From Clostridia bacterium (GTDB taxonomy: Bacteria > Bacillota > Clostridia > Monoglobales > Firm-18): DNA of 33,843 nucleotides. The translations under genes and the position numbers were made by a program. Under the pieces are notes generated by a model. It saw only the letters and a program-made list of their open reading frames with translations, made no database searches and was not told the DNA's origin. Numbering within the stretch: position 1 is the first letter of the stretch; each line of letters starts with the position of its first letter. This document shows positions 2-9,203 of this stretch, piece by piece. The stretch covers positions 1 through 33,843 of the forward strand of contig JAGCLT010000079.1 in NCBI GenBank assembly GCA_017646825.1, written 5' to 3'.

Positions 2-784
2 ACTATAAGTTACGGAAAAATCACATATACAAAGGACAATGGCAGACTTGATTATAAAATCACCGTTAATTATACGGTGTCATCTTATCAGGAAGGAGAA
101 CAGGTTACTATGCTAGTGCTTTCGGGCACTGACACAATAGTTTTTGACTCGGTTGAAACTGACAAGCCTGTAAACATTGCGTACATAGATCAGAAACCTA
201 TTGAAAACGCAAATGATTCCTTTACATTTCTTCTTGAAAAAAGTTTTGTGCAGAATAATAAACTGTATATAAAACTTGGCGCTTCAAGCATGCTTCAGCC
301 TTCTGACAAAGTATATACATTTTTGTCAGGAAATGAAACAGTTCAGGTTAATGCTGTTTCAGAAGTAACCAATGCCTTTGGATTGTCAGGCAAAACACTT
401 TTGATTGTTACAACGGAAAACACATTGCCGGACGAAGCCGTTGTAAAGATTAAAGGACAGCAGATGTACAAAGTTGCAAACGACGGAGCAGTTAATAAAT
501 ATATTGCTGTTGTAGATAATTATGATAGCGCAAACCGTGAATTTATTACTGCAAACGGAGAAAATCAGGAATTGATTATCGGGGATTCAAACGGCGACAG
601 TGCCATTACCTCTTCTGATATATCAAATATTATCAGCAAAATTATAAGCGGCTCTGCATTTACTGAAATTGTTAATATGTGTTCTGACTTCAATGGAGAC
701 GGACTGATTAATATTACTGATATAACATTTTTGTACGATTATATTAACGGAAACATAACAGATATACCGGCGCTTAACAGATAA
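2..784 (+). CDS. Dockerin-containing cell-surface protein (5'-truncated by the window edge): N-terminal beta-rich module, probable X-module, C-terminal dockerin
   Basis: Frame is open from nt 2 (TISYGKITYTKDNGRLDYKITVNYTV...), so the GTG at 77 is probably not the true start. The C-terminus has two Ca-binding dockerin repeats, GDSNGDSAITSSDISNII and SDFNGDGLINITDITFLY (~581-750). Confidence 0.85.
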   Translation, partial: TISYGKITYTKDNGRLDYKITVNYTVSSYQEGEQVTMLVLSGTDTIVFDSVETDKPVNIAYIDQKPIENANDSFTFLLEKSFVQNNKLYIKLGASSMLQPSDKVYTFLSGNETVQVNAVSEVTNAFGLSGKTLLIVTTENTLPDEAVVKIKGQQMYKVANDGAVNKYIAVVDNYDSANREFITANGENQELIIGDSNGDSAITSSDISNIISKIISGSAFTEIVNMCSDFNGDGLINITDITFLYDYINGNITDIPALNR

Positions 785-798
785 GGAGAAAAATAATT

Positions 799-3099
799 AT
801 GATGAAAAGAATTTTAGCACTGATACTTGCAATTGCAGTTTCCGTAATTGGTTTATCTTTTTGCGTAAGCGCTGCGGCAGTTGTTACAGTTACAACAGGT
901 CCAATTAATGCAACAAATGTTGCTGCAAACGGAGAAATTTCTGTTCCGTTGACTATTTCCAATATAGTTGACACAGCAATAAAAGGCGTACAGATTGATT
1001 TCTCTTTTGATAAAACAAAACTGGAATTTGTAGATGCAAAAAGAGCAATGAAGTTATATAAAACAGATACAGGTACGCTCGCAAATGCTACATGGAATAA
1101 AAATGTAACCGCTATCAACCAAAATGGTGGCGGAAGCGTGATTTTTACTGATTCTTCTTCAGGTGGCCGTTCTTTCAGACAACAGTCATTTGACGCAAAT
1201 CCAACACTTGTAACACTGATATTTAAAAGAAAATCAGGAGTTACCGAAAATTCCGAAGTTACATTTGATGAAATAATATTAAACGGCTTGTCAAATACTG
1301 AATATAAAGTTTCAAAAGGACATATCGATTGCGAAGATGCGCAAATCAAATTTGTAAAGAATACAGATGCATCTTTAAGTTCGTTAACAGCATCTCCTGC
1401 AGTTTTGTCACCTGCATTTGATTCCGGAGTGTATTCTTATACGGCAACCGTTCCTTATGAAACACAGTCTGTGACACTTGCGGCAACTGCAACAGACGCT
1501 TATGCATCAGTTGTATCATCGACTGTAGGTGTTAAGACACTTTCAACAGGGGAAAACACATTTGTAGTTAAAAGTCGTGCGGAGGATGGCGTAACAACCA
1601 AAGATTATACAGTGGTTATTACTAAAGAAGCACCTCCTGCATATCATGGAGATAATACATTAAGCGCACTGTCTATAGAGGGACTTACATTATCACCTGT
1701 ATTCTCAGCAGGAACACTTACATATACAACAACAACAGAGTCTGATACCGTACCTGTAATTACTGCTACACCGACAGTTGACGGTGCAACTGTTAATGTC
1801 GTAAAACCTGCACAGTTTGCAGTAGGTGAGAACACAATTACAATTACTGTTACAGCACTCAACGGTTCAACAAGCACTTATACTGTAACAGTTACATATA
1901 ATCTTCCTTTGGATTTAACCTCAAATACACTTAGTGCATTGTCAATAGGCACAATTCCTCTGACACCTACATTTTCAAGTGATGTAGTTTCATATACAGG
2001 AACAACGGATTCGGCAACAGTACCTGAGATAATCGCTACACCTACAGTTGACGGTGCAACTGTTAATATTCAAAAACCGGAAACATTCAGTCCCGGAAGA
2101 AACGAAATATTAATTACAGTTACTGCAGTTAACGGTACACCAAAACGTTATCTGGTGGCGATTACATATGATTCACCTGATTTGTACGGGGACAATACCT
2201 TAAAAGAACTTCGCATAAAGGACAACAAAATTCCTTTGTCTCCTGCATTTTCAAGTGAGATTACAACTTATACAGGTGCAACAAGAGTTACGGCAATACC
2301 TGAAATTGTTGCAACACCTAATGACAGACATGCAACTGTTACAATTTCAGCACCGCCAAAACTTATCAAAGGTGAAAATACAATTACGATTACGGTTACA
2401 GCATTAAATGGTGCTACCAAAAACTATTACCTGAAAATCACCTGCAATCCCGCCGATGGTGGCGGTGGTGGAGGCGGCACCGGTGGTGGAGGTGGAGCCG
2501 GTGGCGGAGCACAGACAGAGCCAACCACACCTACAACACCTACAAGACCAAGCGGTAAATTCAACGACTTAAAAGGTTATGACTGGGCACTTGATGCTAT
2601 AGACAAATTAGTTACAAAAGGCATTGTAAGCGGTACAAGTGCAACAACATTTGAGCCCGAAAAGAGTGTGACAAGAGCAGAATTTGCAAAACTGGTTGTG
2701 GCATCTTTTGGATTAACTTTAAATAGCGACAAATTAACATCATTTAATGATGTTAATTCGGCAGAATGGTACAAACAATATGTTGATATTGCAGTATCTA
2801 ACGGAATCGTAACAGGTTATGAAAACAACACATTCAGACCGAACAATACTATTACCAGAGAAGAAATGTGCGTAATGCTTGCAAGAGCACTTAGGTCTTA
2901 TGAACTGGAAGATAAAGAAAGCACAACTTTTGCGGATGCAAATAAAGTAAGTGGCTGGGCAATAGAAGCAGTAGCGCTTCTGTCATCACACGGTATTATA
3001 AACGGCAAAGGCAATGATATGTTTGCACCCCTTGATAATGCAAGCCGTGCGGAAAGCGCAGTAACAATAGGCCGAATTTTAACCTTAATAGGTAAATAA
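799..3099 (+). CDS. Secreted SLH-anchored cohesin protein: signal peptide, cohesin-like domain, 4 cadherin-like beta-sandwich repeats, Gly and Pro/Thr linker, 3 SLH domains
   Basis: RBS AAGGAG; signal peptide MMKRILALILAIAVSVIG...AAA; cohesin-like pattern ISVPLTISN...IKGVQIDFSFDKTKLEFV; four repeats of the form L-S-x-L...LSPxF...Y...GENxxxxxVxA..G.T..Y; SLH motifs FNDLKGYDWA...VTRAEF, FNDVNSAEWY...ITREEM and FADANKVSGWA...ASRAES. Confidence 0.85.
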   Translation: MMKRILALILAIAVSVIGLSFCVSAAAVVTVTTGPINATNVAANGEISVPLTISNIVDTAIKGVQIDFSFDKTKLEFVDAKRAMKLYKTDTGTLANATWNKNVTAINQNGGGSVIFTDSSSGGRSFRQQSFDANPTLVTLIFKRKSGVTENSEVTFDEIILNGLSNTEYKVSKGHIDCEDAQIKFVKNTDASLSSLTASPAVLSPAFDSGVYSYTATVPYETQSVTLAATATDAYASVVSSTVGVKTLSTGENTFVVKSRAEDGVTTKDYTVVITKEAPPAYHGDNTLSALSIEGLTLSPVFSAGTLTYTTTTESDTVPVITATPTVDGATVNVVKPAQFAVGENTITITVTALNGSTSTYTVTVTYNLPLDLTSNTLSALSIGTIPLTPTFSSDVVSYTGTTDSATVPEIIATPTVDGATVNIQKPETFSPGRNEILITVTAVNGTPKRYLVAITYDSPDLYGDNTLKELRIKDNKIPLSPAFSSEITTYTGATRVTAIPEIVATPNDRHATVTISAPPKLIKGENTITITVTALNGATKNYYLKITCNPADGGGGGGGTGGGGGAGGGAQTEPTTPTTPTRPSGKFNDLKGYDWALDAIDKLVTKGIVSGTSATTFEPEKSVTRAEFAKLVVASFGLTLNSDKLTSFNDVNSAEWYKQYVDIAVSNGIVTGYENNTFRPNNTITREEMCVMLARALRSYELEDKESTTFADANKVSGWAIEAVALLSSHGIINGKGNDMFAPLDNASRAESAVTIGRILTLIGK
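1360..2448 (+). repeat. Four tandem ~90-aa cadherin-like beta-sandwich coding repeats
   Basis: Repeats start at about 1360, 1648, 1921 and 2188. An identical 24-mer ACAGTTGACGGTGCAACTGTTAAT occurs at 1774-1797 and 2044-2067 (270 nt apart). Confidence 0.85.
2458..2553 (+). repeat. Low-complexity poly-Gly and Pro/Thr linker preceding the SLH domains
   Basis: Translation GGGGGGGTGGGGGAGGGAQTEPTTPTTPTRPS; GGN codon run. Confidence 0.9.
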
Positions 3100-3111
3100 G
3101 GAGACAACAAA

Positions 3112-6100
3112 ATGAATAAAAAACTATCAAAAATACTATCTTTATTTATTGCAATGTCCATTGCTCTTTCAATGGTCACAATCTCTGTATCGTCAACGGA
3201 AACCCTATTGTCTGACGAAAATTCTGAAGGACTTTTAGAGGCTCCGTCTGGTGATTTATTGTTGGAGCAAGAGACTTTTACAGGCATAGACAGCACAAAT
3301 AATAATAATGCCGAACCGGGCACAATGGATTTTAACAGTTTTACGTTAACTTCATCTGATGAAGAACCAGCAGTTGAGCCCGATATTCCGCAGATTCGTT
3401 CAACAACAATAGTTGATACAGGAATGGGTTTAACAGAATCTTTTAAGATTTTGTTTGATACACCTATGAACTTTGAATCTCTTTCTAATGTTAAGTTGTA
3501 TAAGGATAGTTTGGGAGGAACACAGGTTCAATTAACTCCTTCTTTGTCAACAGACAGACTTGCGGCGTATTTCTCACATGTACCGCTTGAATATAATACA
3601 ACTTATGTGCTCAGCATACCTGACACTGTTTTGTCTTCAACATACGGTGCTTTCGAGGGCGCTACATACACATTTACAACTATCAGTAAAACAGCACAGC
3701 ACGAAAACGTTGTGTGGTTTGAAGATTTTGACACAAGAACAGGCTGGGACGAAACGGAGAGAAGAGCCGGCTGGGGCATGGCCATCAAAGAAACGATTGA
3801 TGGTGTGTTGTGCGATATTGGCGGAGCGTCAAATTTAGGCGATCGTGATAATATTGCCGGGCAAAAGGCGGAATTTCGTGAAGGTGGAATTATGTTTACG
3901 AAACCGCTGACTTACGGCACATCAAACTTTGTTCATTTGACATTGCCGTTTACAGGTTACACGCTAAACGAAACTGCGGATTATGTAGCAGTTGAATTCG
4001 ATTATTATCAGGAAGGAGAATACGGGGACAAATATTCATCAGACGTAAGAATTCAAAATGAAGCCGAAAATACTATTTTCGCATTAAACTTTGGTAGTCC
4101 GTCTTACGGTTTTCAGTATCATACTCTTTACGGATTGTATGCAAAAGATTTTGAAGAATATCCTGATTTTCAAAACAAACTTTTGGCGCTTGCTCCGGAC
4201 GGTGTAATGAATGCAGAGGATGTAGCGGCGAACAGTATATCTAATAATAAATCACACTGGATAGGAACAGACGTAAAAATTCAAATTTTATTTGATGTTA
4301 AAAACAGTAAATATATAGTGAATTATTTTATTGACAATGAAAGATACGAGGCATTAAACGGATGGGAAGATATGGTTCCTGCATGGGATTTTAACTTAAA
4401 CAAAATCACATTTACAGCACAAAGCGAGGCGGCTCCAACCAAGCCCGACGTAATTGTTAAATATGATAATGTTGCAATTGTTGAATATTCATCACCTGAA
4501 GTTGCCTTTACTTCAGTAGATGCACAATCCAACATTGAAACTGACGAGCCTGTAACAATTACATTTACAGAGCCTATGATGGAAGAAACATTAAAAGGTA
4601 TTACTTTGAAGAAAGGCTCTGCAGATGTTGAAAATTTAGATTTTGAGTTGTCGCCTGACGGAAAAACTGTAACATTGATTTGCGATGAACTCGATAACGG
4701 AGCAGACTATACTCTTACAGTTCCTGAAACTGTAATGTCAGAAGATTATTTTGCAATGGCAGAAGAATATACCAAAATATTTACAACAATGGCGGCGGAA
4801 AAAGCATATACATTTACAACAAAAACTGCACCTACACCACCTATTATTGTATCTGCATCAATAACAGACGGCGAAACAGGTGTGCCTGTTACAAGTGAAT
4901 TTACATTTACTTTTGACAAAGCGATGAATACATCAACATTTGACAATATAACATTAGTGAAGGTTGAAGGAGAGGAAGAAACTTCGGTTTCACTTTATCC
5001 TTCTGCTTCAAACGGTGATAAAACAGTAAGACTTGGTCACCCGAAACTTGATAATGGTAAAGATTACATCTTGACTATTCCCACAAGCGTAAAAGCAGTA
5101 AACAACCTTGCGCTTTCGAATGAAGTAAAATATACGTTTACAACTGCAAATGTTGCAGAGGGCGAAACTTTGTTATATGGTCAGTACTTTGATACTGCTA
5201 TAGGCGGCGTAACTGAAACACAAGCCAGGTATCAGGACGGTAACTGGAATATTTATTCAAAGGTTGAAAACGAGACTGCTTGTTCTGATACAAACAAAGT
5301 AGAATTCAAAGACGGTAAAATGGTAATTACCAAGGAACAGAGAATAACAGGCGCAGAAGCACAAAACGCTATTTATGCTAAACTTGATTTGTCTAAGGCG
5401 GCAAATATGCCTGAAACAGGCGTTGTTGCTATTGAATATGACATTAATTACAGTAAAAAACCCCGGGATACATGGTACACAGATGCTGCTGTAAGCAGCA
5501 ATGCTGAAATCACAAGACTTTGTTTCGCAAGCGGAAGTTTCGGCTGGATTGATAAGAGTGTTACCGATGATATAAGAACTGGTACAAAAATAACAACACC
5601 TTCAGACTGGCTGGAAGGCAAAGATATTCATGTGAAACTTGTGTATAACTTAGACGATAAAACTTATACTATGTTCTATACAGTTGATGGTGTAACATAC
5701 CAGAGTCCTGTAGGAGTTGCTCCTTTCAGAAACGGTATTACAAGCACAAAAATTACTAAATTGAAATTTTCATATATTTACAGGTATTATGACGATGACC
5801 CGATTATAATCACACTGGACAATGTGGAAGTTAAAAAACTTACTAAACCTGTAGTTGACACAAATGCTTCATCAGTTGTTAACGGTCAGTCAGGGGTAAG
5901 CGCAACAGGAAAAATTACATTGAAATTTAATGCTGATATGAACACTAACTATTTTAAAGATATTAAGATTTACGAAGGCGAAGTAGCACCACAGAATGTT
6001 GTTCCCACAACTTCTGTTTTTGAAGATTCAAAAACCTGTTTTGTATATCTTGATAAGGGCTTGAAATACAGCACGCGTTACGTAATTGATATTCCTACGT

Positions 6101-6504
6101 CTGTTGTAAGTAAAAACTTGATTCCGGTTGCTGCAAAACAGATTAATTTTTATACAGAAGCGCCACAGATTGGATACGATGTAGAATTTGTTTCTGTTAA
6201 AAACGAAAGGGGCACTACGGTAACAGATATCAGGGGACTGAAATCTGTTAAAGCAGAAGTACTGTTTACAAACGAAATGTGTGCATGTTTAAAAGCACCA
6301 AAACTTATAGTTGCACTTTGTGACAGCGAAGGCAATATAAAGAGCATTTCTTACCGTGAAACTCCGGTGTATGTAGGTTCACCTCAGACTGTTGTTGCAA
6401 GTTTTACATCTACTATTCCTTTTGAATCGGGCGACTGCTTAAAAGCCTATGTATTAGACGGCACAACAGGAAGTATAATGTCACGGGAAGTTATATATAA
6501 TTAA
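3112..6504 (+). CDS. Large secreted protein: signal peptide, 4 Ig-like (Big_5/SbsA-type) domains, 2 predicted beta-sandwich (lectin/LamG-like) domains and a C-terminal ~110-aa module
   Basis: RBS AGGGAG; signal peptide; Big_5-like units (FxxPM/FDKAM/FNADM...L.Y/NG..Y.L.IP..V...FTT) at about 3388-3681, 4495-4788, 4837-5145 and 5848-6159; intervening domains open with WFEDFD/YGQYFD and close with YDNVAI/LDNVEV. Confidence 0.75.
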   Translation: MNKKLSKILSLFIAMSIALSMVTISVSSTETLLSDENSEGLLEAPSGDLLLEQETFTGIDSTNNNNAEPGTMDFNSFTLTSSDEEPAVEPDIPQIRSTTIVDTGMGLTESFKILFDTPMNFESLSNVKLYKDSLGGTQVQLTPSLSTDRLAAYFSHVPLEYNTTYVLSIPDTVLSSTYGAFEGATYTFTTISKTAQHENVVWFEDFDTRTGWDETERRAGWGMAIKETIDGVLCDIGGASNLGDRDNIAGQKAEFREGGIMFTKPLTYGTSNFVHLTLPFTGYTLNETADYVAVEFDYYQEGEYGDKYSSDVRIQNEAENTIFALNFGSPSYGFQYHTLYGLYAKDFEEYPDFQNKLLALAPDGVMNAEDVAANSISNNKSHWIGTDVKIQILFDVKNSKYIVNYFIDNERYEALNGWEDMVPAWDFNLNKITFTAQSEAAPTKPDVIVKYDNVAIVEYSSPEVAFTSVDAQSNIETDEPVTITFTEPMMEETLKGITLKKGSADVENLDFELSPDGKTVTLICDELDNGADYTLTVPETVMSEDYFAMAEEYTKIFTTMAAEKAYTFTTKTAPTPPIIVSASITDGETGVPVTSEFTFTFDKAMNTSTFDNITLVKVEGEEETSVSLYPSASNGDKTVRLGHPKLDNGKDYILTIPTSVKAVNNLALSNEVKYTFTTANVAEGETLLYGQYFDTAIGGVTETQARYQDGNWNIYSKVENETACSDTNKVEFKDGKMVITKEQRITGAEAQNAIYAKLDLSKAANMPETGVVAIEYDINYSKKPRDTWYTDAAVSSNAEITRLCFASGSFGWIDKSVTDDIRTGTKITTPSDWLEGKDIHVKLVYNLDDKTYTMFYTVDGVTYQSPVGVAPFRNGITSTKITKLKFSYIYRYYDDDPIIITLDNVEVKKLTKPVVDTNASSVVNGQSGVSATGKITLKFNADMNTNYFKDIKIYEGEVAPQNVVPTTSVFEDSKTCFVYLDKGLKYSTRYVIDIPTSVVSKNLIPVAAKQINFYTEAPQIGYDVEFVSVKNERGTTVTDIRGLKSVKAEVLFTNEMCACLKAPKLIVALCDSEGNIKSISYRETPVYVGSPQTVVASFTSTIPFESGDCLKAYVLDGTTGSIMSREVIYN

Positions 6505-6514
6505 TAAGATAATA

Positions 6515-6546
6515 AAAAGTCATTAGTCTTCGGACTAATGACTTTT
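6515..6546. terminator. Bidirectional intrinsic terminator with a UUCG tetraloop
   Basis: Perfect 14-bp inverted repeat AAAAGTCATTAGTC-TTCG-GACTAATGACTTTT between convergent genes. Confidence 0.9.
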
Positions 6547-6911
6547 GTATTTTGACGGTACAGTTCCGTAACATTTCTTAAAAACTTTTGTGAAGTATGA
6601 GATGTTGGTAAATCCGCATCTTTCTGCACTTTCGCTTACAGGTACGTTGTCTTTTAAAAGTTCGGTAACTTTAAGACATCTGTATCTGTTTATATATTCC
6701 ACCACCGTGTTGGATGTGATTTTTTTGAACTCGCGGGACAAAGTGTATTTGTCAATGGCAGAAAATCGCGCGACATTTTTTTGTTATAGTTTTCTCTGAT
6801 ATATTTTATGCTTTTTTTTATTGTATCAAATTTGTTTTGTTCATATATAGCAGTAACGCTTTGCAAGTGATTTTCAAAAAGTTCTATAAGTATATTCAAT
6901 AAACATACTTT
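6535..6911 (-). pseudogene. AraC-family regulator remnant (5'-truncated, internally frameshifted)
   Basis: One frame reads KVCLLNILIELFENH...IKKSIKYIRENYNKKMS. A second frame continues SAIDKYTLSREFKKITSNTVVEYINRYR...SESAERCGFTNISYFTKVFKKCYGTVPSKYK, the AraC C-terminal HTH signature. No N-terminal sensor domain or RBS is present. Confidence 0.8.
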
Positions 6912-7562
6912 TTATTTTGCAAAGACATGTTTGCCTATTGTGGTAATTACAGGTCTTGAATATATCCAGTTGTTTGTGGTTTTAGCAGGGTTGTAATAAT
7001 ATATTGCACCACCTGTTGGGTCCCAGCCGTTTAAAGCATCCTTTGCGGCTTTGTAAGGCGTGTCATACATTTCCGCGTTCCATTGTCCGTCCTGTAGTGC
7101 CGTAAATGCTCCCGGCTGATAAATTACGCCTGCAATAGTATTAGGAAAGGAGGAATGCTCAACTCTGTTTAACACAACTGCACCAACAGCAACTTGTCCT
7201 GTATAACTTTCTCCTCTTGCCTCTGCATTTATAATTCTTGCAAGGAGTCTTGCGTTGGTTTCGGCAGACCCTGATGCGGAATTTGAAGAGATGCCCATTT
7301 TTTCAAGAGTATTTTTTCCTGCTATTCCGTCCTGCTTAAGTCCGTTGTTTTTCTGGAACTGTGTAACCGCTTTTTTTGTGTTGCTTCCGAATATGCCGTC
7401 AACTTTTTTTATGTCATATCCCCATTTCTGAAGGCGTGACTGTATTTCTCTTACTTCGTCCCCTCTGGAGCCGTACTTTGATAATGTAGAAACACTAATT
7501 AGCGTTGCGGACAAAGACACTATCACAATAGAAAGGGTAATAAAAAGTATTGATTTTTTCAT
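6912..7562 (-). CDS. sleB: Spore cortex-lytic enzyme (signal peptide, PG-binding domain, Hydrolase_2)
   Basis: GSRGDEVREIQSRL...DGIFG...DGIAGKNTL PG-binding domain; LLARIINAEARGESYTGQVAVGAVVLNRV and GWDPTGGAIYYYNP catalytic motifs; RBS AGGAG. Confidence 0.9.
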   Translation of the reverse strand: MKKSILFITLSIVIVSLSATLISVSTLSKYGSRGDEVREIQSRLQKWGYDIKKVDGIFGSNTKKAVTQFQKNNGLKQDGIAGKNTLEKMGISSNSASGSAETNARLLARIINAEARGESYTGQVAVGAVVLNRVEHSSFPNTIAGVIYQPGAFTALQDGQWNAEMYDTPYKAAKDALNGWDPTGGAIYYYNPAKTTNNWIYSRPVITTIGKHVFAK

Positions 7563-7592: not shown

Positions 7593-7622
7593 TAGTGTTG
7601 CCAGAATAATATGATATTATGA
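7593..7622 (-). promoter_or_regulatory. Putative sigmaF/sigmaG-type promoter for sleB
   Basis: Minus strand reads TCATA-15 nt-GGCAACACTA, close to the forespore consensus GyATA-N15-GGnnAnAhTR. Confidence 0.55.
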
Positions 7623-8324
7623 CAGTTTTTCCCGCATTTGCAAAAGCACCCGCTTTTCTATCCGCGACACCTGAACCTGGGATATTCCGATTTTTTTTGC
7701 AATTTCACTTTGAGTCTTGTCCATAAAATATCTCATAAAAATTATTTGTCTTTCCCTTTTGGGAAAAGTAGAAAGAACAGACTTAAGAGCAAGCCTGTCA
7801 ATGCTTTCTGTTTCTAAATCGGTGTCTGCGGACAACTGTTGCTCTAAAGGTTGTTCGCCGTCTCCTGCATAGTTTAATGATGCGGGGCGGGTGTACGCTT
7901 CCATAGCCACAATAATATCTTCCGTGTTTACCCCTACCTCTTTGGCAATTTCCGAAACGGTGGGCTCGCGGTTTAAGGTTTTGGACAGTTTTTCTCTTAC
8001 TGCCATTGCCTTTATACCTGTTTCCTTAATACTTCTGCTGATTTTTATTATGCCGTCATCTCTTATAAATCTTTTTATTTCTCCCGTTATCATAGGAACT
8101 GCATAGGTGGAAAACTGAAGACCTAAAGAGGTGTCGAATTTGTCAATGGCTTTAATAAGACCTATGCACCCCACCTGAAATAGGTCCTCTGCCTCGTGCC
8201 CTCTGTTCGAAAATCTTTTTACTATGCTCCACACCAGTTTACTGTTATTTTCCACTAAAAAGGAACGGCTGTCCTTGTCTCCGCTTTTTGCCTTGTTAAT
8301 GGCAAGATAAATGTCAGGTTGCAT
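7617..8324 (-). CDS. sigF: Sporulation sigma factor sigmaF (SpoIIAC)
   Basis: LVWSIVKRF, DLFQVGCIGLIKAIDKFD, FSTYAVPMITGEIKRFIRDDG, TQSEIAKKIGISQVQVSRIEK; third gene of the spoIIA operon. Confidence 0.95.
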   Translation of the reverse strand: MQPDIYLAINKAKSGDKDSRSFLVENNSKLVWSIVKRFSNRGHEAEDLFQVGCIGLIKAIDKFDTSLGLQFSTYAVPMITGEIKRFIRDDGIIKISRSIKETGIKAMAVREKLSKTLNREPTVSEIAKEVGVNTEDIIVAMEAYTRPASLNYAGDGEQPLEQQLSADTDLETESIDRLALKSVLSTFPKRERQIIFMRYFMDKTQSEIAKKIGISQVQVSRIEKRVLLQMREKLS

Positions 8325-8327
8325 AGT

Positions 8328-8753
8328 TTACACCTGCACTTTTTTTCGCATTATAACAGTAGTACCCATGCCTACGCTGGACTTTATTTCAAGGGAGTCC
8401 ATAAATGTTTCCATAACAGTAAAGCCCATGCCTGAACGTTCTTCGTCAGGGCTGGATGTAAAAAGAGGACGTCTTGCTTCTGCTATGTCTTCTATTCCCC
8501 GTCCGTAGTCAGAAACGGTAATTTCAATTTCGTTTAAGTTATATACACAGCACACGGTAACAAAGCCTGACATATTTTCGTATCCGTGGACAATAGCATT
8601 TGTAACCGCCTCAGATACTGCGGTTTTTATGTCTGCTATGGTTTCTACGGTTAAGTCCAGTTGAGCACAAAAAGATGCAATGGCAACACGGGCAAGTCCC
8701 TCGTTAACAGACTTGTTTAAAAACTGTATTTTCATTTCGTTTATGTAATTCAA
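8328..8753 (-). CDS. spoIIAB: Anti-sigmaF factor / serine kinase
   Basis: NE..AR, DIKTAVSEAVTNAIVHGY, ERSGMGFTVMETFMD. Confidence 0.95.
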   Translation of the reverse strand: MNYINEMKIQFLNKSVNEGLARVAIASFCAQLDLTVETIADIKTAVSEAVTNAIVHGYENMSGFVTVCCVYNLNEIEITVSDYGRGIEDIAEARRPLFTSSPDEERSGMGFTVMETFMDSLEIKSSVGMGTTVIMRKKVQV

Positions 8754-9083
8754 TTATTTCACCTCCAAGGCTTTTTGTTGGTTGGGATATATGGTAATAA
8801 GTCTTGACAGTCCAGACATTTTTACCAAGTCTTTAATTCTCTGATTGGTACCAAAGGCGCAGACAGAACCTTTTATTGCCTCCATAAGTCTGTACCGCCC
8901 CATTATTACGCCTATTCCGGAACTGTCCATAAAATGTACCTTTGTAAAGTCAAAAACAACTTTCCTGATTTCGCCTTTTAAAATAATACGGTCTGCTTTT
9001 TCTCTGATTTCTGAAGCGTAGTGATGGTCAAGTTCCCCTTCGGGTCTTATTATCATTGCATCGCCCATAATATCTATTGTCAT
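8754..9083 (-). CDS. spoIIAA: Anti-anti-sigmaF factor (STAS domain)
   Basis: GELDHH, FMDSSGIGVIMGRY. ATG at 9083 follows the RBS GGGGTG and is preferred over the GTG at 9092. Confidence 0.93.
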   Translation of the reverse strand: MTIDIMGDAMIIRPEGELDHHYASEIREKADRIILKGEIRKVVFDFTKVHFMDSSGIGVIMGRYRLMEAIKGSVCAFGTNQRIKDLVKMSGLSRLITIYPNQQKALEVK

Positions 9084-9203
9084 ATTTATCACCCCGTTTT
9101 TTGTTATTATATGGAGATTATATTATATCTATTCTGTAAAAAAAGTCGTTTTTTGTATAACAATCCAAACTTTATGAAAAAATATTACAAGAGGTGAAAA
9201 CAA

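Follow-up and report, generated by a model that had tools for sequence, protein, structure and literature searches.

A predicted cohesin-dockerin surface-display module with an SLH-anchored stalk and a non-catalytic dockerin protein in an uncultured gut Clostridia bacterium

Dockerins are defined by two duplicated Ca-binding loop-helix repeats and cohesins by a nine-stranded jelly roll, and the two bind each other with high affinity in a Ca-dependent manner. In Acetivibrio thermocellus the cohesin partners of dockerins are found on proteins with SLH domains, which bind pyruvylated wall polymer: OlpA and OlpC combine a single type I cohesin with SLH domains, SdbA and OlpB type II cohesins. A survey from 2009 reportedly catalogued non-cellulosomal cohesin and dockerin modules, and such pairs, though widely catalogued, have seldom been assigned a role. 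In Ruminococcus flavefaciens the single cohesin of the wall-anchored ScaE holds the non-catalytic CttA through its C-terminal dockerin; the genes of both belong to one cluster, and CttA is thought to mediate adhesion (PMC5301203). Adjoining cohesin and dockerin genes in Cellulosilyticum lentocellum encode ClcC and ClcD, a heterodimer that enhances cellulase activity (PMC13487519). Cohesin-dockerin systems are also described from 'scaffoldin-containing', presumably non-cellulolytic microbes in which few plant-cell-wall enzymes, or none, bear a dockerin (PMC11557425).

The locus described here lies at the start of the window, the whole stretch of 33,843 nucleotides that was analysed, from an uncultured, small-genome gut Clostridia bacterium (Table 1). 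Its three co-oriented genes are separated by gaps of 14 and then 12 nt, AGGAG motifs are located 8-10 nt before the ATG of gene 2 and of gene 3, and the closing hairpin pairs 14 bp around a UUCG loop (free energy -20.6 kcal/mol, z = -5.9; 0 of 200 shuffles fold as well). These features confirm the initial annotation, which had described closely spaced genes with ribosome-binding sites and one strong terminator, and the locus is predicted to be a chromosomal three-gene operon encoding a non-cellulosomal cohesin-dockerin surface-display module.

Table 1. Features of the locus, with positions in the window.
Feature	Position	Strand	Description
Gene 1	2..784	+	ORF, 5'-open at contig end
Gene 1 N-terminal Ig-like beta-sandwich	2..325	+	aa 1-108 of window frame; AF2 pLDDT ~90
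Gene 1 second small beta domain	338..556	+	aa 113-185; AF2 strands 116-185, pLDDT 56-85
Gene 1 dockerin	572..775	+	aa 191-258; two Ca-binding repeats, DSNGDSAITSSD and DFNGDGLINITD
Gene 2	799..3099	+	ORF, 766 aa; predicted SLH-anchored monovalent scaffoldin
Gene 2 predicted cohesin	868..1365	+	aa 24-189, directly after signal peptide (aa 1-26)
Four cadherin-like beta-sandwich repeats (stalk)	1366..2445	+	Pfam Cadherin-like 76.6 bits, 3 stretches
Gly-rich and Pro/Thr-rich linker	2446..2553	+	read from gene 2 translation
Three SLH domains (wall anchor)	2557..3054	+	genome scan 2557-2688, 2740-2871, 2926-3054
Gene 3	3112..6504	+	ORF, 1130 aa; secreted, no recognised anchor
Big_5 Ig-like domain 1	3379..3681	+	jackhmmer envelopes; Pfam Big_5
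Jelly-roll domain A	3682..4488	+	homologous to domain B: phmmer cross-matches, alignment A2
Big_5 domains 2 and 3	4489..5145	+	4489-4788 and 4834-5145; jackhmmer, Pfam
Jelly-roll domain B	5146..5847	+	aa 679-912; concanavalin A-like lectin/glucanase fold
Big_5 domain 4	5842..6156	+	jackhmmer
Gene 3 C-terminal domain	6157..6501	+	~aa 1016-1130
Hairpin terminator	6515..6546	.	closes operon; bidirectional; faces convergent AraC-like remnant

Gene 1 is cut by the contig end, and the initial annotation had proposed that its upstream sequence be retrieved to complete it. Contig C115 of the same assembly, which shares a 141-nt exact overlap with the window (the first 60 nt of the window were found on no third contig), completes the gene: its frame opens MFKSK...SAYA followed by A and adds a 28-aa signal peptide. 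GAGGGG and a promoter-like site lie ahead of this frame. The full product of 288 aa consists of two Ig-like domains and the dockerin and contains no CAZyme module. A database protein of 288 aa (P0002) is identical to gene 1 over the window part and has the same N-terminus as the C115 frame, and the orthologues in the genus are open frames of 288-293 aa. Because C115 adds the signal peptide only and identical 288-aa proteins exist, a hidden CAZyme is rejected. Further upstream are genes for an HtrA-like protease and a histidine kinase, the same neighbours as in the relatives.

The C-terminal dockerin noted in the initial annotation was recovered with Pfam PF00404 (Dockerin_1) at 40.8 bits, over the curated cut-off of 22.9, and at 35.1 bits in the genome scan; it has the dockerin fold, its best structural matches are type I dockerins, and the two Ca-binding repeats DSNGDSAITSSD and DFNGDGLINITD are both intact, each followed by a helix. 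What is conserved among gene 1 proteins is chiefly the N-terminal Ig-like domain, the core of a narrow family that has only 15 matching representative clusters at E <= 1e-3 among 1.84 billion, whereas the second beta domain varies between relatives and some do not have it (L020 and L021 in alignment A1). With VIA the N-terminal domain matched generic Ig/FN3-like folds only (Z <=9.7), and Foldseek gave only transglutaminase tandem Ig-like barrels (TM ~0.25), so that identification of the head as a cohesin or a known binding module is unsupported and 'adhesin' would be a presumptive name for gene 1.

Gene 2 was previously read as a cohesin-like domain on four cadherin-like repeats followed by three SLH domains, an architecture that agrees with Pfam matches above the cut-offs for cohesin and SLH (the latter 146.1 bits in 3 stretches) and with four readable repeat units starting at aa 190, 285, 376 and 465, of which Pfam lists 3 stretches. 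The cohesin matched PF00963 at 29.8 bits (cut-off 24.1; profile positions 5-123 of 139) and, in the genome scan, at 34.6 bits (904-1293). By sequence, the N-terminal domain is probably a cohesin, a call that is not strong on its own because the Pfam margin is ~6 bits, the best E value of a single-sequence search was 0.068 (to a solved cohesin) and a profile of four genus sequences found nothing in the PDB at E <= 1. Profile comparisons argue for the same identity. When the genus profile was aligned with the relatives' Pfam-positive cohesins, hhalign gave 94.2% probability (E 1.2e-7). A family profile matched cohesin-type chains in the PDB (best 6kg8_A, 1.1e-9): among the 24 sequences at E <= 0.01, 22 go by the name of scaffoldin, anchoring protein or NagJ and the other two by that of endoglucanase (5nrk and 5nrm), the entry 5nrk being titled as a cohesin-dockerin complex. 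Orthologues of gene 2 have 676, 788 and 873 aa, which points to a variable number of repeats. SLH domains were matched 42 times in the genome, spread over 18 open frames, and contig C46 carries a gene for pyruvylation of the wall polymer (PS_pyruv_trans, CsaB-like, 160.9 bits).

In the genome, exactly two dockerin and two cohesin matches were detected at E <= 0.01, numbers that are lower bounds since the draft assembly, in 116 contigs, has a completeness of 89%. Each dockerin gene is located directly upstream of a cohesin-SLH gene, one pair on C91 and the other on C65. Modelling of the gene 1 dockerin with the gene 2 cohesin, also proposed in the initial annotation, gave a score of 0.90 (median of 0.80, 0.90 and 0.92) against 0.00 for the best of 3 controls; the mark it passes is reached by 116 of 157 solved complexes vs 2 of 215 mismatched pairs, a calibration from which this model differs in its supplied alignments and riding Ca ions. 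The runs share >=96% of contacts, which involve dockerin helices 1 and 3 and cohesin segments 39-42, 77-98 and 137-145, with partner pLDDT >=83 and a cohesin chain pLDDT of 84-92. As cohesin-dockerin complexes have been solved many times, the pass may reflect likeness to a textbook pair rather than binding of this copy; with this qualification, the model supports binding of the gene 1 dockerin to the gene 2 cohesin.

Taken together, the three genes are best explained as a device in which a non-enzymatic protein is mounted on a wall-fixed stalk through a cohesin-dockerin pair, a reading to which we assign a probability of about 0.72. The mature gene 1 protein, 260 aa after export, would comprise two Ig-like domains and a dockerin resembling type I. 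Gene 2 would also be exported, and fixed non-covalently by its three SLH domains to the wall polymer, presumably in pyruvylated form, while the four cadherin-like repeats and the flexible linker would hold the single N-terminal cohesin off the wall. The dockerin is expected to plug into this cohesin in a Ca-dependent manner, so that the Ig-like head of gene 1 would be the outermost tip. The module as a whole may serve adhesion or glycan capture. Gene 3 would be co-transcribed and secreted.

The locus is a neat variation on an established theme, in which a monovalent scaffoldin anchored by SLH domains is combined with a dockerin protein that is non-catalytic. A cellulosome combines a scaffoldin carrying several cohesins with plant-cell-wall glycoside hydrolases that bear dockerins; here each cohesin protein has a single cohesin, the genome has two in all, and no dockerin-borne glycoside hydrolase was found. 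The initial annotation had seen no recognisable glycoside hydrolase, and the absence of dockerin-borne enzymes is supported: Pfam gives no catalytic domain for either dockerin protein, and no GH5, GH9, GH48 or CBM3 was found in the genome, an absence limited by its 89% completeness and, for GH48, by a control that gave no match in control genomes. Compared with the SLH scaffoldins of A. thermocellus, the captured gene 1 protein would be neither an enzyme nor a primary scaffoldin, the stalk of gene 2 is made of four cadherin-like repeats, and the host genome has two dockerins only and none of these enzyme and binding-module families was found in it. In type II/III X-dockerin anchoring, as in SdbA/OlpB with CipA and in ScaE with CttA, an X-module packs against the dockerin. 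The parallel originally drawn with X-dockerin capture by SdbA and OlpB holds only loosely, the best structural matches of the gene 1 dockerin being type I; OlpA and OlpC, whose single cohesin binds type I dockerins, or ScaE and CttA, are closer. As in the ScaE-CttA system (PMC5301203), a non-catalytic dockerin protein would sit on the single cohesin of a wall-anchored protein from the same cluster. ScaE, in contrast, is linked by sortase (LPXTG) and also anchors a whole cellulosome, whereas gene 2 is SLH-anchored, and CttA has CBM-like modules and an X-dockerin with insertions where gene 1 has generic Ig-like domains. With ClcC/ClcD (PMC13487519), the locus shares one cohesin gene beside one dockerin gene; unlike that heterodimer, the gene 1-gene 2 pair is devoid of a catalytic module and its cohesin protein is SLH-anchored. 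Surveys list architectures, and in the accessible part of one (PMC11557425) neither this cassette, nor the narrow gene 1 family, nor the rule that the cohesin gene comes after the dockerin gene was found.

Gene 3 begins with a signal peptide, after which aa 29-89 form an acidic linker of low complexity. Pfam reports Big_5 only (114.4 bits, 4 stretches), and the internal repeats, which self-BLAST did not reveal, were detected with phmmer and jackhmmer. Domains A and B have the beta-jelly-roll fold expected of a concanavalin A-like assignment, and gene 3 is a probable glycan-binding protein with two concanavalin-like jelly rolls between Big_5 spacers. GH16 enzymes have the conserved catalytic strand ExDx(x)E; at this position domain B reads IEYDINY, and only one Asp of the strand (D99) is invariant among 11 domain copies (alignment A2), so that assignment to GH16 is not supported, and a different catalytic arrangement stays conceivable. 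The C-terminal domain matched no Pfam family at E <= 1, has no paralogue in its own genome and reached a best atlas score of 0.77, below lead level. As stated in the initial annotation, the protein appears secreted with no recognisable anchor: the only hydrophobic segment is N-terminal, and no C-terminal LPxTG was found, an LPFTG at aa 278 being internal to a jelly-roll domain. On C65, a jelly-roll domain of the same family as those of gene 3 adjoins the second cohesin-dockerin pair and is convergent to it.

In the tiered assembly originally proposed, gene 1 was an adaptor whose Ig-like domains hold the lectin-like gene 3 as displayed cargo. The part running from the wall through SLH domains, stalk and cohesin to the dockerin protein is retained, on the basis of Pfam, pairing, synteny and the complex model; gene 3 as its cargo is not. 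Tight coupling of the genes, with a 12-nt gap and a single terminator, the missing anchor of gene 3, the jelly-roll domain beside the C65 pair and the gene order would all suit the full assembly; this order, whose comparison among relatives had also been suggested, recurs in each of the 3 other genus genomes. Outside the genus, however, 7 genomes matched gene 1, and in 4 of the 5 loci examined a gene 1-like dockerin protein is followed by a scaffoldin and then by a protein with a cohesin, SLH domains or both. No gene 3 is known outside the genus: in the other genera with gene 1-like proteins the gene 3 query returned no orthologue, only weak Big_5 matches in one genome. Gene 1-like proteins with cohesin partners thus occur in at least 4 other genera in which this query found no gene 3 orthologue, which argues against the adaptor and indicates that the gene 1 head has a role independent of gene 3. 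No sequence relation between gene 1 and gene 3 was found either (BLAST best E 0.39), and the full tiered assembly is considered unlikely.

If the two dockerins and two cohesins were promiscuous or cross-paired, gene 1 could dock on the cohesin-SLH protein of C65, either instead of gene 2 or in addition to it. Promiscuity is described as common among the cellulosomal cohesin-dockerin pairs of one organism (PMC5301203), and the complex model covers one pairing only. Nevertheless, the two cohesins are 13% identical (alignment A3), the genus profile of the gene 2 cohesin aligned with the C65 cohesin at an hhalign probability of 0.7%, the two dockerins, compared by eye, have different residues after their Ca loops, and both pairs keep their own adjacency in the relatives of the genus, all of which makes cross-pairing improbable. 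That the modules are decayed, non-binding relics and the three proteins independent, sharing just an operon, is highly improbable, for in spite of the weak cohesin signal (E 0.068; genus profile empty in the PDB) both Ca-binding repeats are intact, both Pfam scores exceed their cut-offs, the gene 1-gene 2 pair is 65-87% identical across the genus in open frames of equal length, and its adjacency recurs in the family.

Mounting of the gene 1 protein on the gene 2 stalk is close to the simplest testable case of a non-cellulosomal pair, as a single cohesin on a stalk at the wall would receive a small dockerin protein that is non-catalytic, and specificity could be controlled against the divergent pair that the genome has on C65. 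Should gene 1 or gene 3 turn out to bind glycans of the host or its diet, uncultured gut Clostridia would possess in this locus a device for adhesion. A broader hypothesis, for the moment doubtful, is that low-copy orthogonal pairs, each encoded with the dockerin gene first, are a general means of mounting non-enzymatic proteins on SLH anchors throughout this family of small-genome gut Clostridia, and that in this genus the gene 1 head also recruits the anchorless, lectin-like gene 3 to form an enzyme-free, glycan-binding 'adhesosome' on a cadherin-like stalk. The placing of the dockerin gene ahead of the cohesin gene could be used as a rule to predict cognate partners and could yield new orthogonal pairs for protein-assembly engineering: across the family, a same-strand cohesin match begins no more than 1 kb downstream of 25 of the 49 dockerin matches. 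Word-index searches retrieved 8 relatives with gene 1, 5 with the gene 2 cohesin and 4 with a gene 3 domain, and a locus search with a single protein returned 3 loci, all titled as uncultured Clostridia MAGs.

The dockerin protein (gene 1), the cohesin-SLH protein (gene 2) and the secreted protein with Big_5 and jelly-roll domains (gene 3) are encoded on the same strand with gaps of 14 nt (gene 1/gene 2) and 12 nt (gene 2/gene 3), AGGAG lies 8-10 nt ahead of the ATG of both gene 2 and gene 3, and the closing hairpin (-20.6 kcal/mol, z -5.9) was equalled in 0 of 200 shuffles. Coordinates, ribosome-binding sites and shuffle test agree with the operon proposed in the initial annotation, and a Pfam search recovered all the domains named there. 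It can be proposed, with a probability of about 0.7, that gene 2 would be fixed to the wall through its SLH triplet and would present its single cohesin at the end of a ~360-aa stalk, where gene 1 would dock via its dockerin and form the tip; judging from position alone, this tip may have an adhesive or ligand-binding role.

Features of the locus and of corresponding gene sets in four family genomes (positions in the window, or in the protein where aa is given)
Feature	Position	Strand	Description
Gene 1	2-784	+	open frame, 5' end open at contig start
Gene 2	799-3099	+	open frame, 766 aa
Gene 3	3112-6504	+	open frame, 1130 aa
Gene 3 linker	3196-3378		acidic, Asn-rich, low complexity, ~60 aa
Hairpin	6515-6546		14-bp stem, UUCG loop
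AraC-type HTH remnant	6535-6899	-	overlapping frames 6690-6899, 6535-6741
SleB-like cell-wall hydrolase	6912-7562		convergent to operon
Sigma-factor cluster	7617-9092	-	convergent to operon
Gene 1 Ig-like sandwich	aa 1-108		AF2 model
Gene 1 smaller beta domain	aa 113-185		AF2 model
Gene 1 three-helix dockerin	aa 191-258		AF2 model
G001 first gene			291 aa; head + dockerin (19.8 bits, under cut-off)
G001 second gene			877 aa; cohesin (26.6 bits, genome scan), cadherin-like repeats, C-terminal dockerin
G001 third gene			491 aa; cohesin, cadherin-like, 3 SLH
G016 first gene			218 aa; dockerin protein
G016 second gene			953 aa; three cohesin stretches, Flg_new repeats, dockerin
G016 third gene			456 aa; 3 SLH, N-domain without Pfam call
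G013 first gene			251 aa; dockerin protein
G013 second gene			849 aa; two cohesins, dockerin-like tail seen by eye only
G013 third gene			411 aa; cohesin-SLH
G020 first gene			330 aa; dockerin protein
G020 second gene			723 aa; with dockerin
G020 third gene			cohesin protein, cut by contig end

The 141 opening bases of the window, which forms the beginning of contig C91, are the end of the reverse complement of C115, another contig of the same assembly (1.22 Mb, 116 contigs, 89% complete), and the first 60 have no copy on any third contig of that assembly. Extension of gene 1 across the overlap adds only a signal peptide (MFKSK...SAYA/A), preceded on C115 by GAGGGG and a TTGCAA-17-TATAAT site; the missing part, which might have been an ordinary CAZyme, is therefore a signal peptide. 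The join is supported by three independent lines: P0002, a 288-aa database protein identical to gene 1 over the window part and with the same N-terminus as the joined frame; the gene 1 orthologues of the genus, open frames of 288-293 aa; and the HtrA-like protease and histidine kinase genes upstream on C115, which are also found upstream in relatives. The dockerin of gene 1 scored 40.8 bits (Dockerin_1, cut-off 22.9), and an AF2 model (13 aligned sequences, mean pLDDT 84.8) resolved three domains. Structural matches of the head were limited to generic Ig/FN3-like domains (Z <=9.7) and its family is narrow, with 15 representative clusters at E <= 1e-3 and five at E <= 1e-10 among 1.84 billion proteins; Dockerin_1 was matched at E <= 0.01 in seven of the 14 clusters scanned, four of them above the cut-off.

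Gene 2 is composed of a signal peptide, a cohesin (29.8 bits, cut-off 24.1), cadherin-like repeats, a Gly/Pro-Thr linker and three SLH domains (146.1 bits). Pfam lists three Cadherin-like stretches (76.6 bits), and four units, starting at aa 190, 285, 376 and 465, can be read in the sequence. The cohesin is divergent: the single sequence reached at best E 0.068 to a solved cohesin, and a profile of the four gene 2 cohesins of the genus found no match in the PDB. The genus profile matched the Pfam-positive cohesins of relatives (94.2% probability, E 1.2e-7), and the combined profile retrieved 24 PDB sequences (best 6kg8_A, E 1.1e-9), 22 of them labelled as scaffoldin, anchoring protein or NagJ; the remaining two bear the name endoglucanase and come from cohesin-dockerin entries. 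With 42 SLH matches in 18 open frames of the genome and a polysaccharide pyruvyl transferase gene present, SLH is the predicted dominant wall-anchoring device of this organism.

Exactly two dockerins and two cohesins were matched at E <= 0.01 in this 89%-complete draft. The other pair, located on contig C65 (1926-4261, + strand), has the same layout, a dockerin gene then a cohesin-SLH gene with 20 nt between them, encoding a secreted protein of 313 aa with the dockerin at its end (30.4 bits) and a protein of 454 aa with a cohesin (32.3 bits), an Fn3_assoc-like segment, a Pro/Thr linker and three SLH; judged by coordinates, adjacent pairs orthologous to it occur in genus relatives. Of the four cohesin-dockerin pairings conceivable in this genome, one was modelled: residues 24-194 of gene 2 and 183-260 of gene 1, together with two Ca ions, gave a score of 0.90 (runs 0.80, 0.90 and 0.92; best of three controls 0.00). 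The mark for such models is attained for 116 of 157 solved complexes and two of 215 mismatched pairs, a calibration from which this model departs in its custom alignments and riding Ca ions. At least 96% of the contacts, which involve dockerin helices 1 and 3 and three cohesin segments, are common to the runs, with a partner pLDDT of at least 83. The model supports binding of the gene 1 dockerin to the gene 2 cohesin; since many cohesin-dockerin complexes have been solved, it denotes likeness rather than proof of binding by these copies. Convergent to the C65 pair lies a 423-aa frame (4675-5943, - strand) whose N-terminal 240 aa belong to the jelly-roll family of gene 3 domains A and B (phmmer E 9e-5 to 1.6e-7) and are followed by BspA-type leucine-rich repeats; the gene next to it (5933-6583, - strand) contains a short collagen-like Gly-X-Y run.

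Gene 1 was matched in 11 of the 22 family genomes, the window's own included. The synteny that the initial annotation had left to comparison was found in all three other genus genomes, which, as kin, are non-independent samples: histidine kinase, HtrA, gene 1, gene 2 and gene 3 are kept in order, followed by a convergent SleB-like hydrolase and sigF, with gene 3 truncated at a contig end in one genome. The orthologues of gene 2 measure 676, 788 and 873 aa, and thus the repeat number varies. Outside the genus, where seven genomes matched gene 1, loci L018-L021 and L024 were examined (L011 and L013 were left out), and four of these five (in G001, G013, G016 and G020) encode, in this order, a small dockerin protein, a scaffoldin and an anchor. 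Given these separate genes, scaffoldin and anchor appear to have been merged into one protein in the window's genus. Dockerin matches occur in 18 of the 22 family genomes (1-7 per genome) and cohesin matches in 16 (1-8 per genome); for 25 of the 49 dockerin matches, a same-strand cohesin match starts no more than 1 kb downstream, a lower bound, since Pfam misses some partner cohesins and some contigs break off. A third arrangement, with the order reversed, was observed in two genus relatives (L022 660-3888, L023 1182-4446), where an SLH protein of 697 or 717 aa without a Pfam cohesin precedes a protein of 372 or 376 aa that has a gene 1-type head (46-53% identity) and a dockerin, with an additional middle part; searched with gene 1, the window's genome gave no such arrangement. 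In G016 (contig C2, 218010-218546, + strand) dockerin and cohesin matches lie 118 nt apart in one 777-aa open frame, possibly a fused form of the pair.

Gene 3 comprises a signal peptide, an acidic linker, Big_5, jelly roll A, two Big_5, jelly roll B, Big_5 and a C-terminal domain of ~115 aa; Pfam gives Big_5 alone, in four stretches. As initially described, it has no recognisable anchor: the C-terminus has no sorting motif, the hydrophobic segment is at the N-terminus only, and an internal LPFTG at aa 278 falls inside a folded domain. Its orthologues, present in all three other genus genomes, are 1405-1560 aa long with a third, N-terminal jelly roll, seen in five N-terminally complete orthologues and in the contig-cut copy of G019; the linker replaces it in the window. 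A model of jelly roll B, built on 11 domain copies (pLDDT 79.5, pTM 0.83), has a concanavalin A-like fold. A language-model look-up pointed to a cluster with Sialidase-like_CBM in 35% of members. The jelly rolls are read as putative binding modules because the strand expected to hold the GH16-type motif keeps one Asp alone invariant over the 11 copies; that they represent a cryptic enzyme is still conceivable. Gene 3 thus encodes a secreted, probably glycan-binding protein that would be co-expressed with the other two. The further step of the initial annotation, in which gene 1 would be an adaptor holding the anchorless gene 3 product, is unlikely, as the gene 1 family occurs independently of gene 3, whose query yielded, among family genomes outside the genus, no more than weak Big_5 matches in a single genome.

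The proposed arrangement of gene 1 docked on wall-held gene 2 shares the logic of the SLH-anchoring scaffoldins, a class named in PMC11557425, and of the R. flavefaciens system in which ScaE carries CttA, a non-catalytic protein (PMC5301203); in C. lentocellum, an adjacent pair of one-cohesin and one-dockerin genes was shown to bind (PMC13487519). It differs from these systems in its non-enzymatic Ig-like cargo from a narrow unnamed family, its cadherin-like stalk, the scaffoldin fused with the anchor and the family-wide rule of a dockerin gene followed by a cohesin gene. The defining features of cellulosomes, a multi-cohesin scaffoldin and dockerin-borne hydrolases, are absent from the locus; GH5, GH9, GH48 and CBM3 were not found in the 89%-complete genome, the GH48 search matching in no control genome either. 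No description of the cassette was found among the open-access texts searched.

The locus is chromosomal, among housekeeping and sporulation genes (SleB-like hydrolase; sigF, spoIIAB, spoIIAA; rpoB, rpoC; EF-G). The sigma-factor cluster comprises sigF-like, anti-sigma kinase-like and anti-anti-sigma-like genes, the latter two named by eye from translations; this cluster and the SleB-like gene indicate that sporulation genes are kept in a ~1.2 Mb genome. The AraC-type remnant, whose frames adjoin runs of 7-8 A, may be a regulator that is frameshifted and short at its N-terminus, or else a sequencing slip; in the relative locus L016, gene 3 and the SleB-like gene are only ~245 nt apart, with no frame of at least 150 aa between them. 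Three related loci are titled as uncultured Clostridia bacterium MAGs, two of the titles naming goat colon or caecum.
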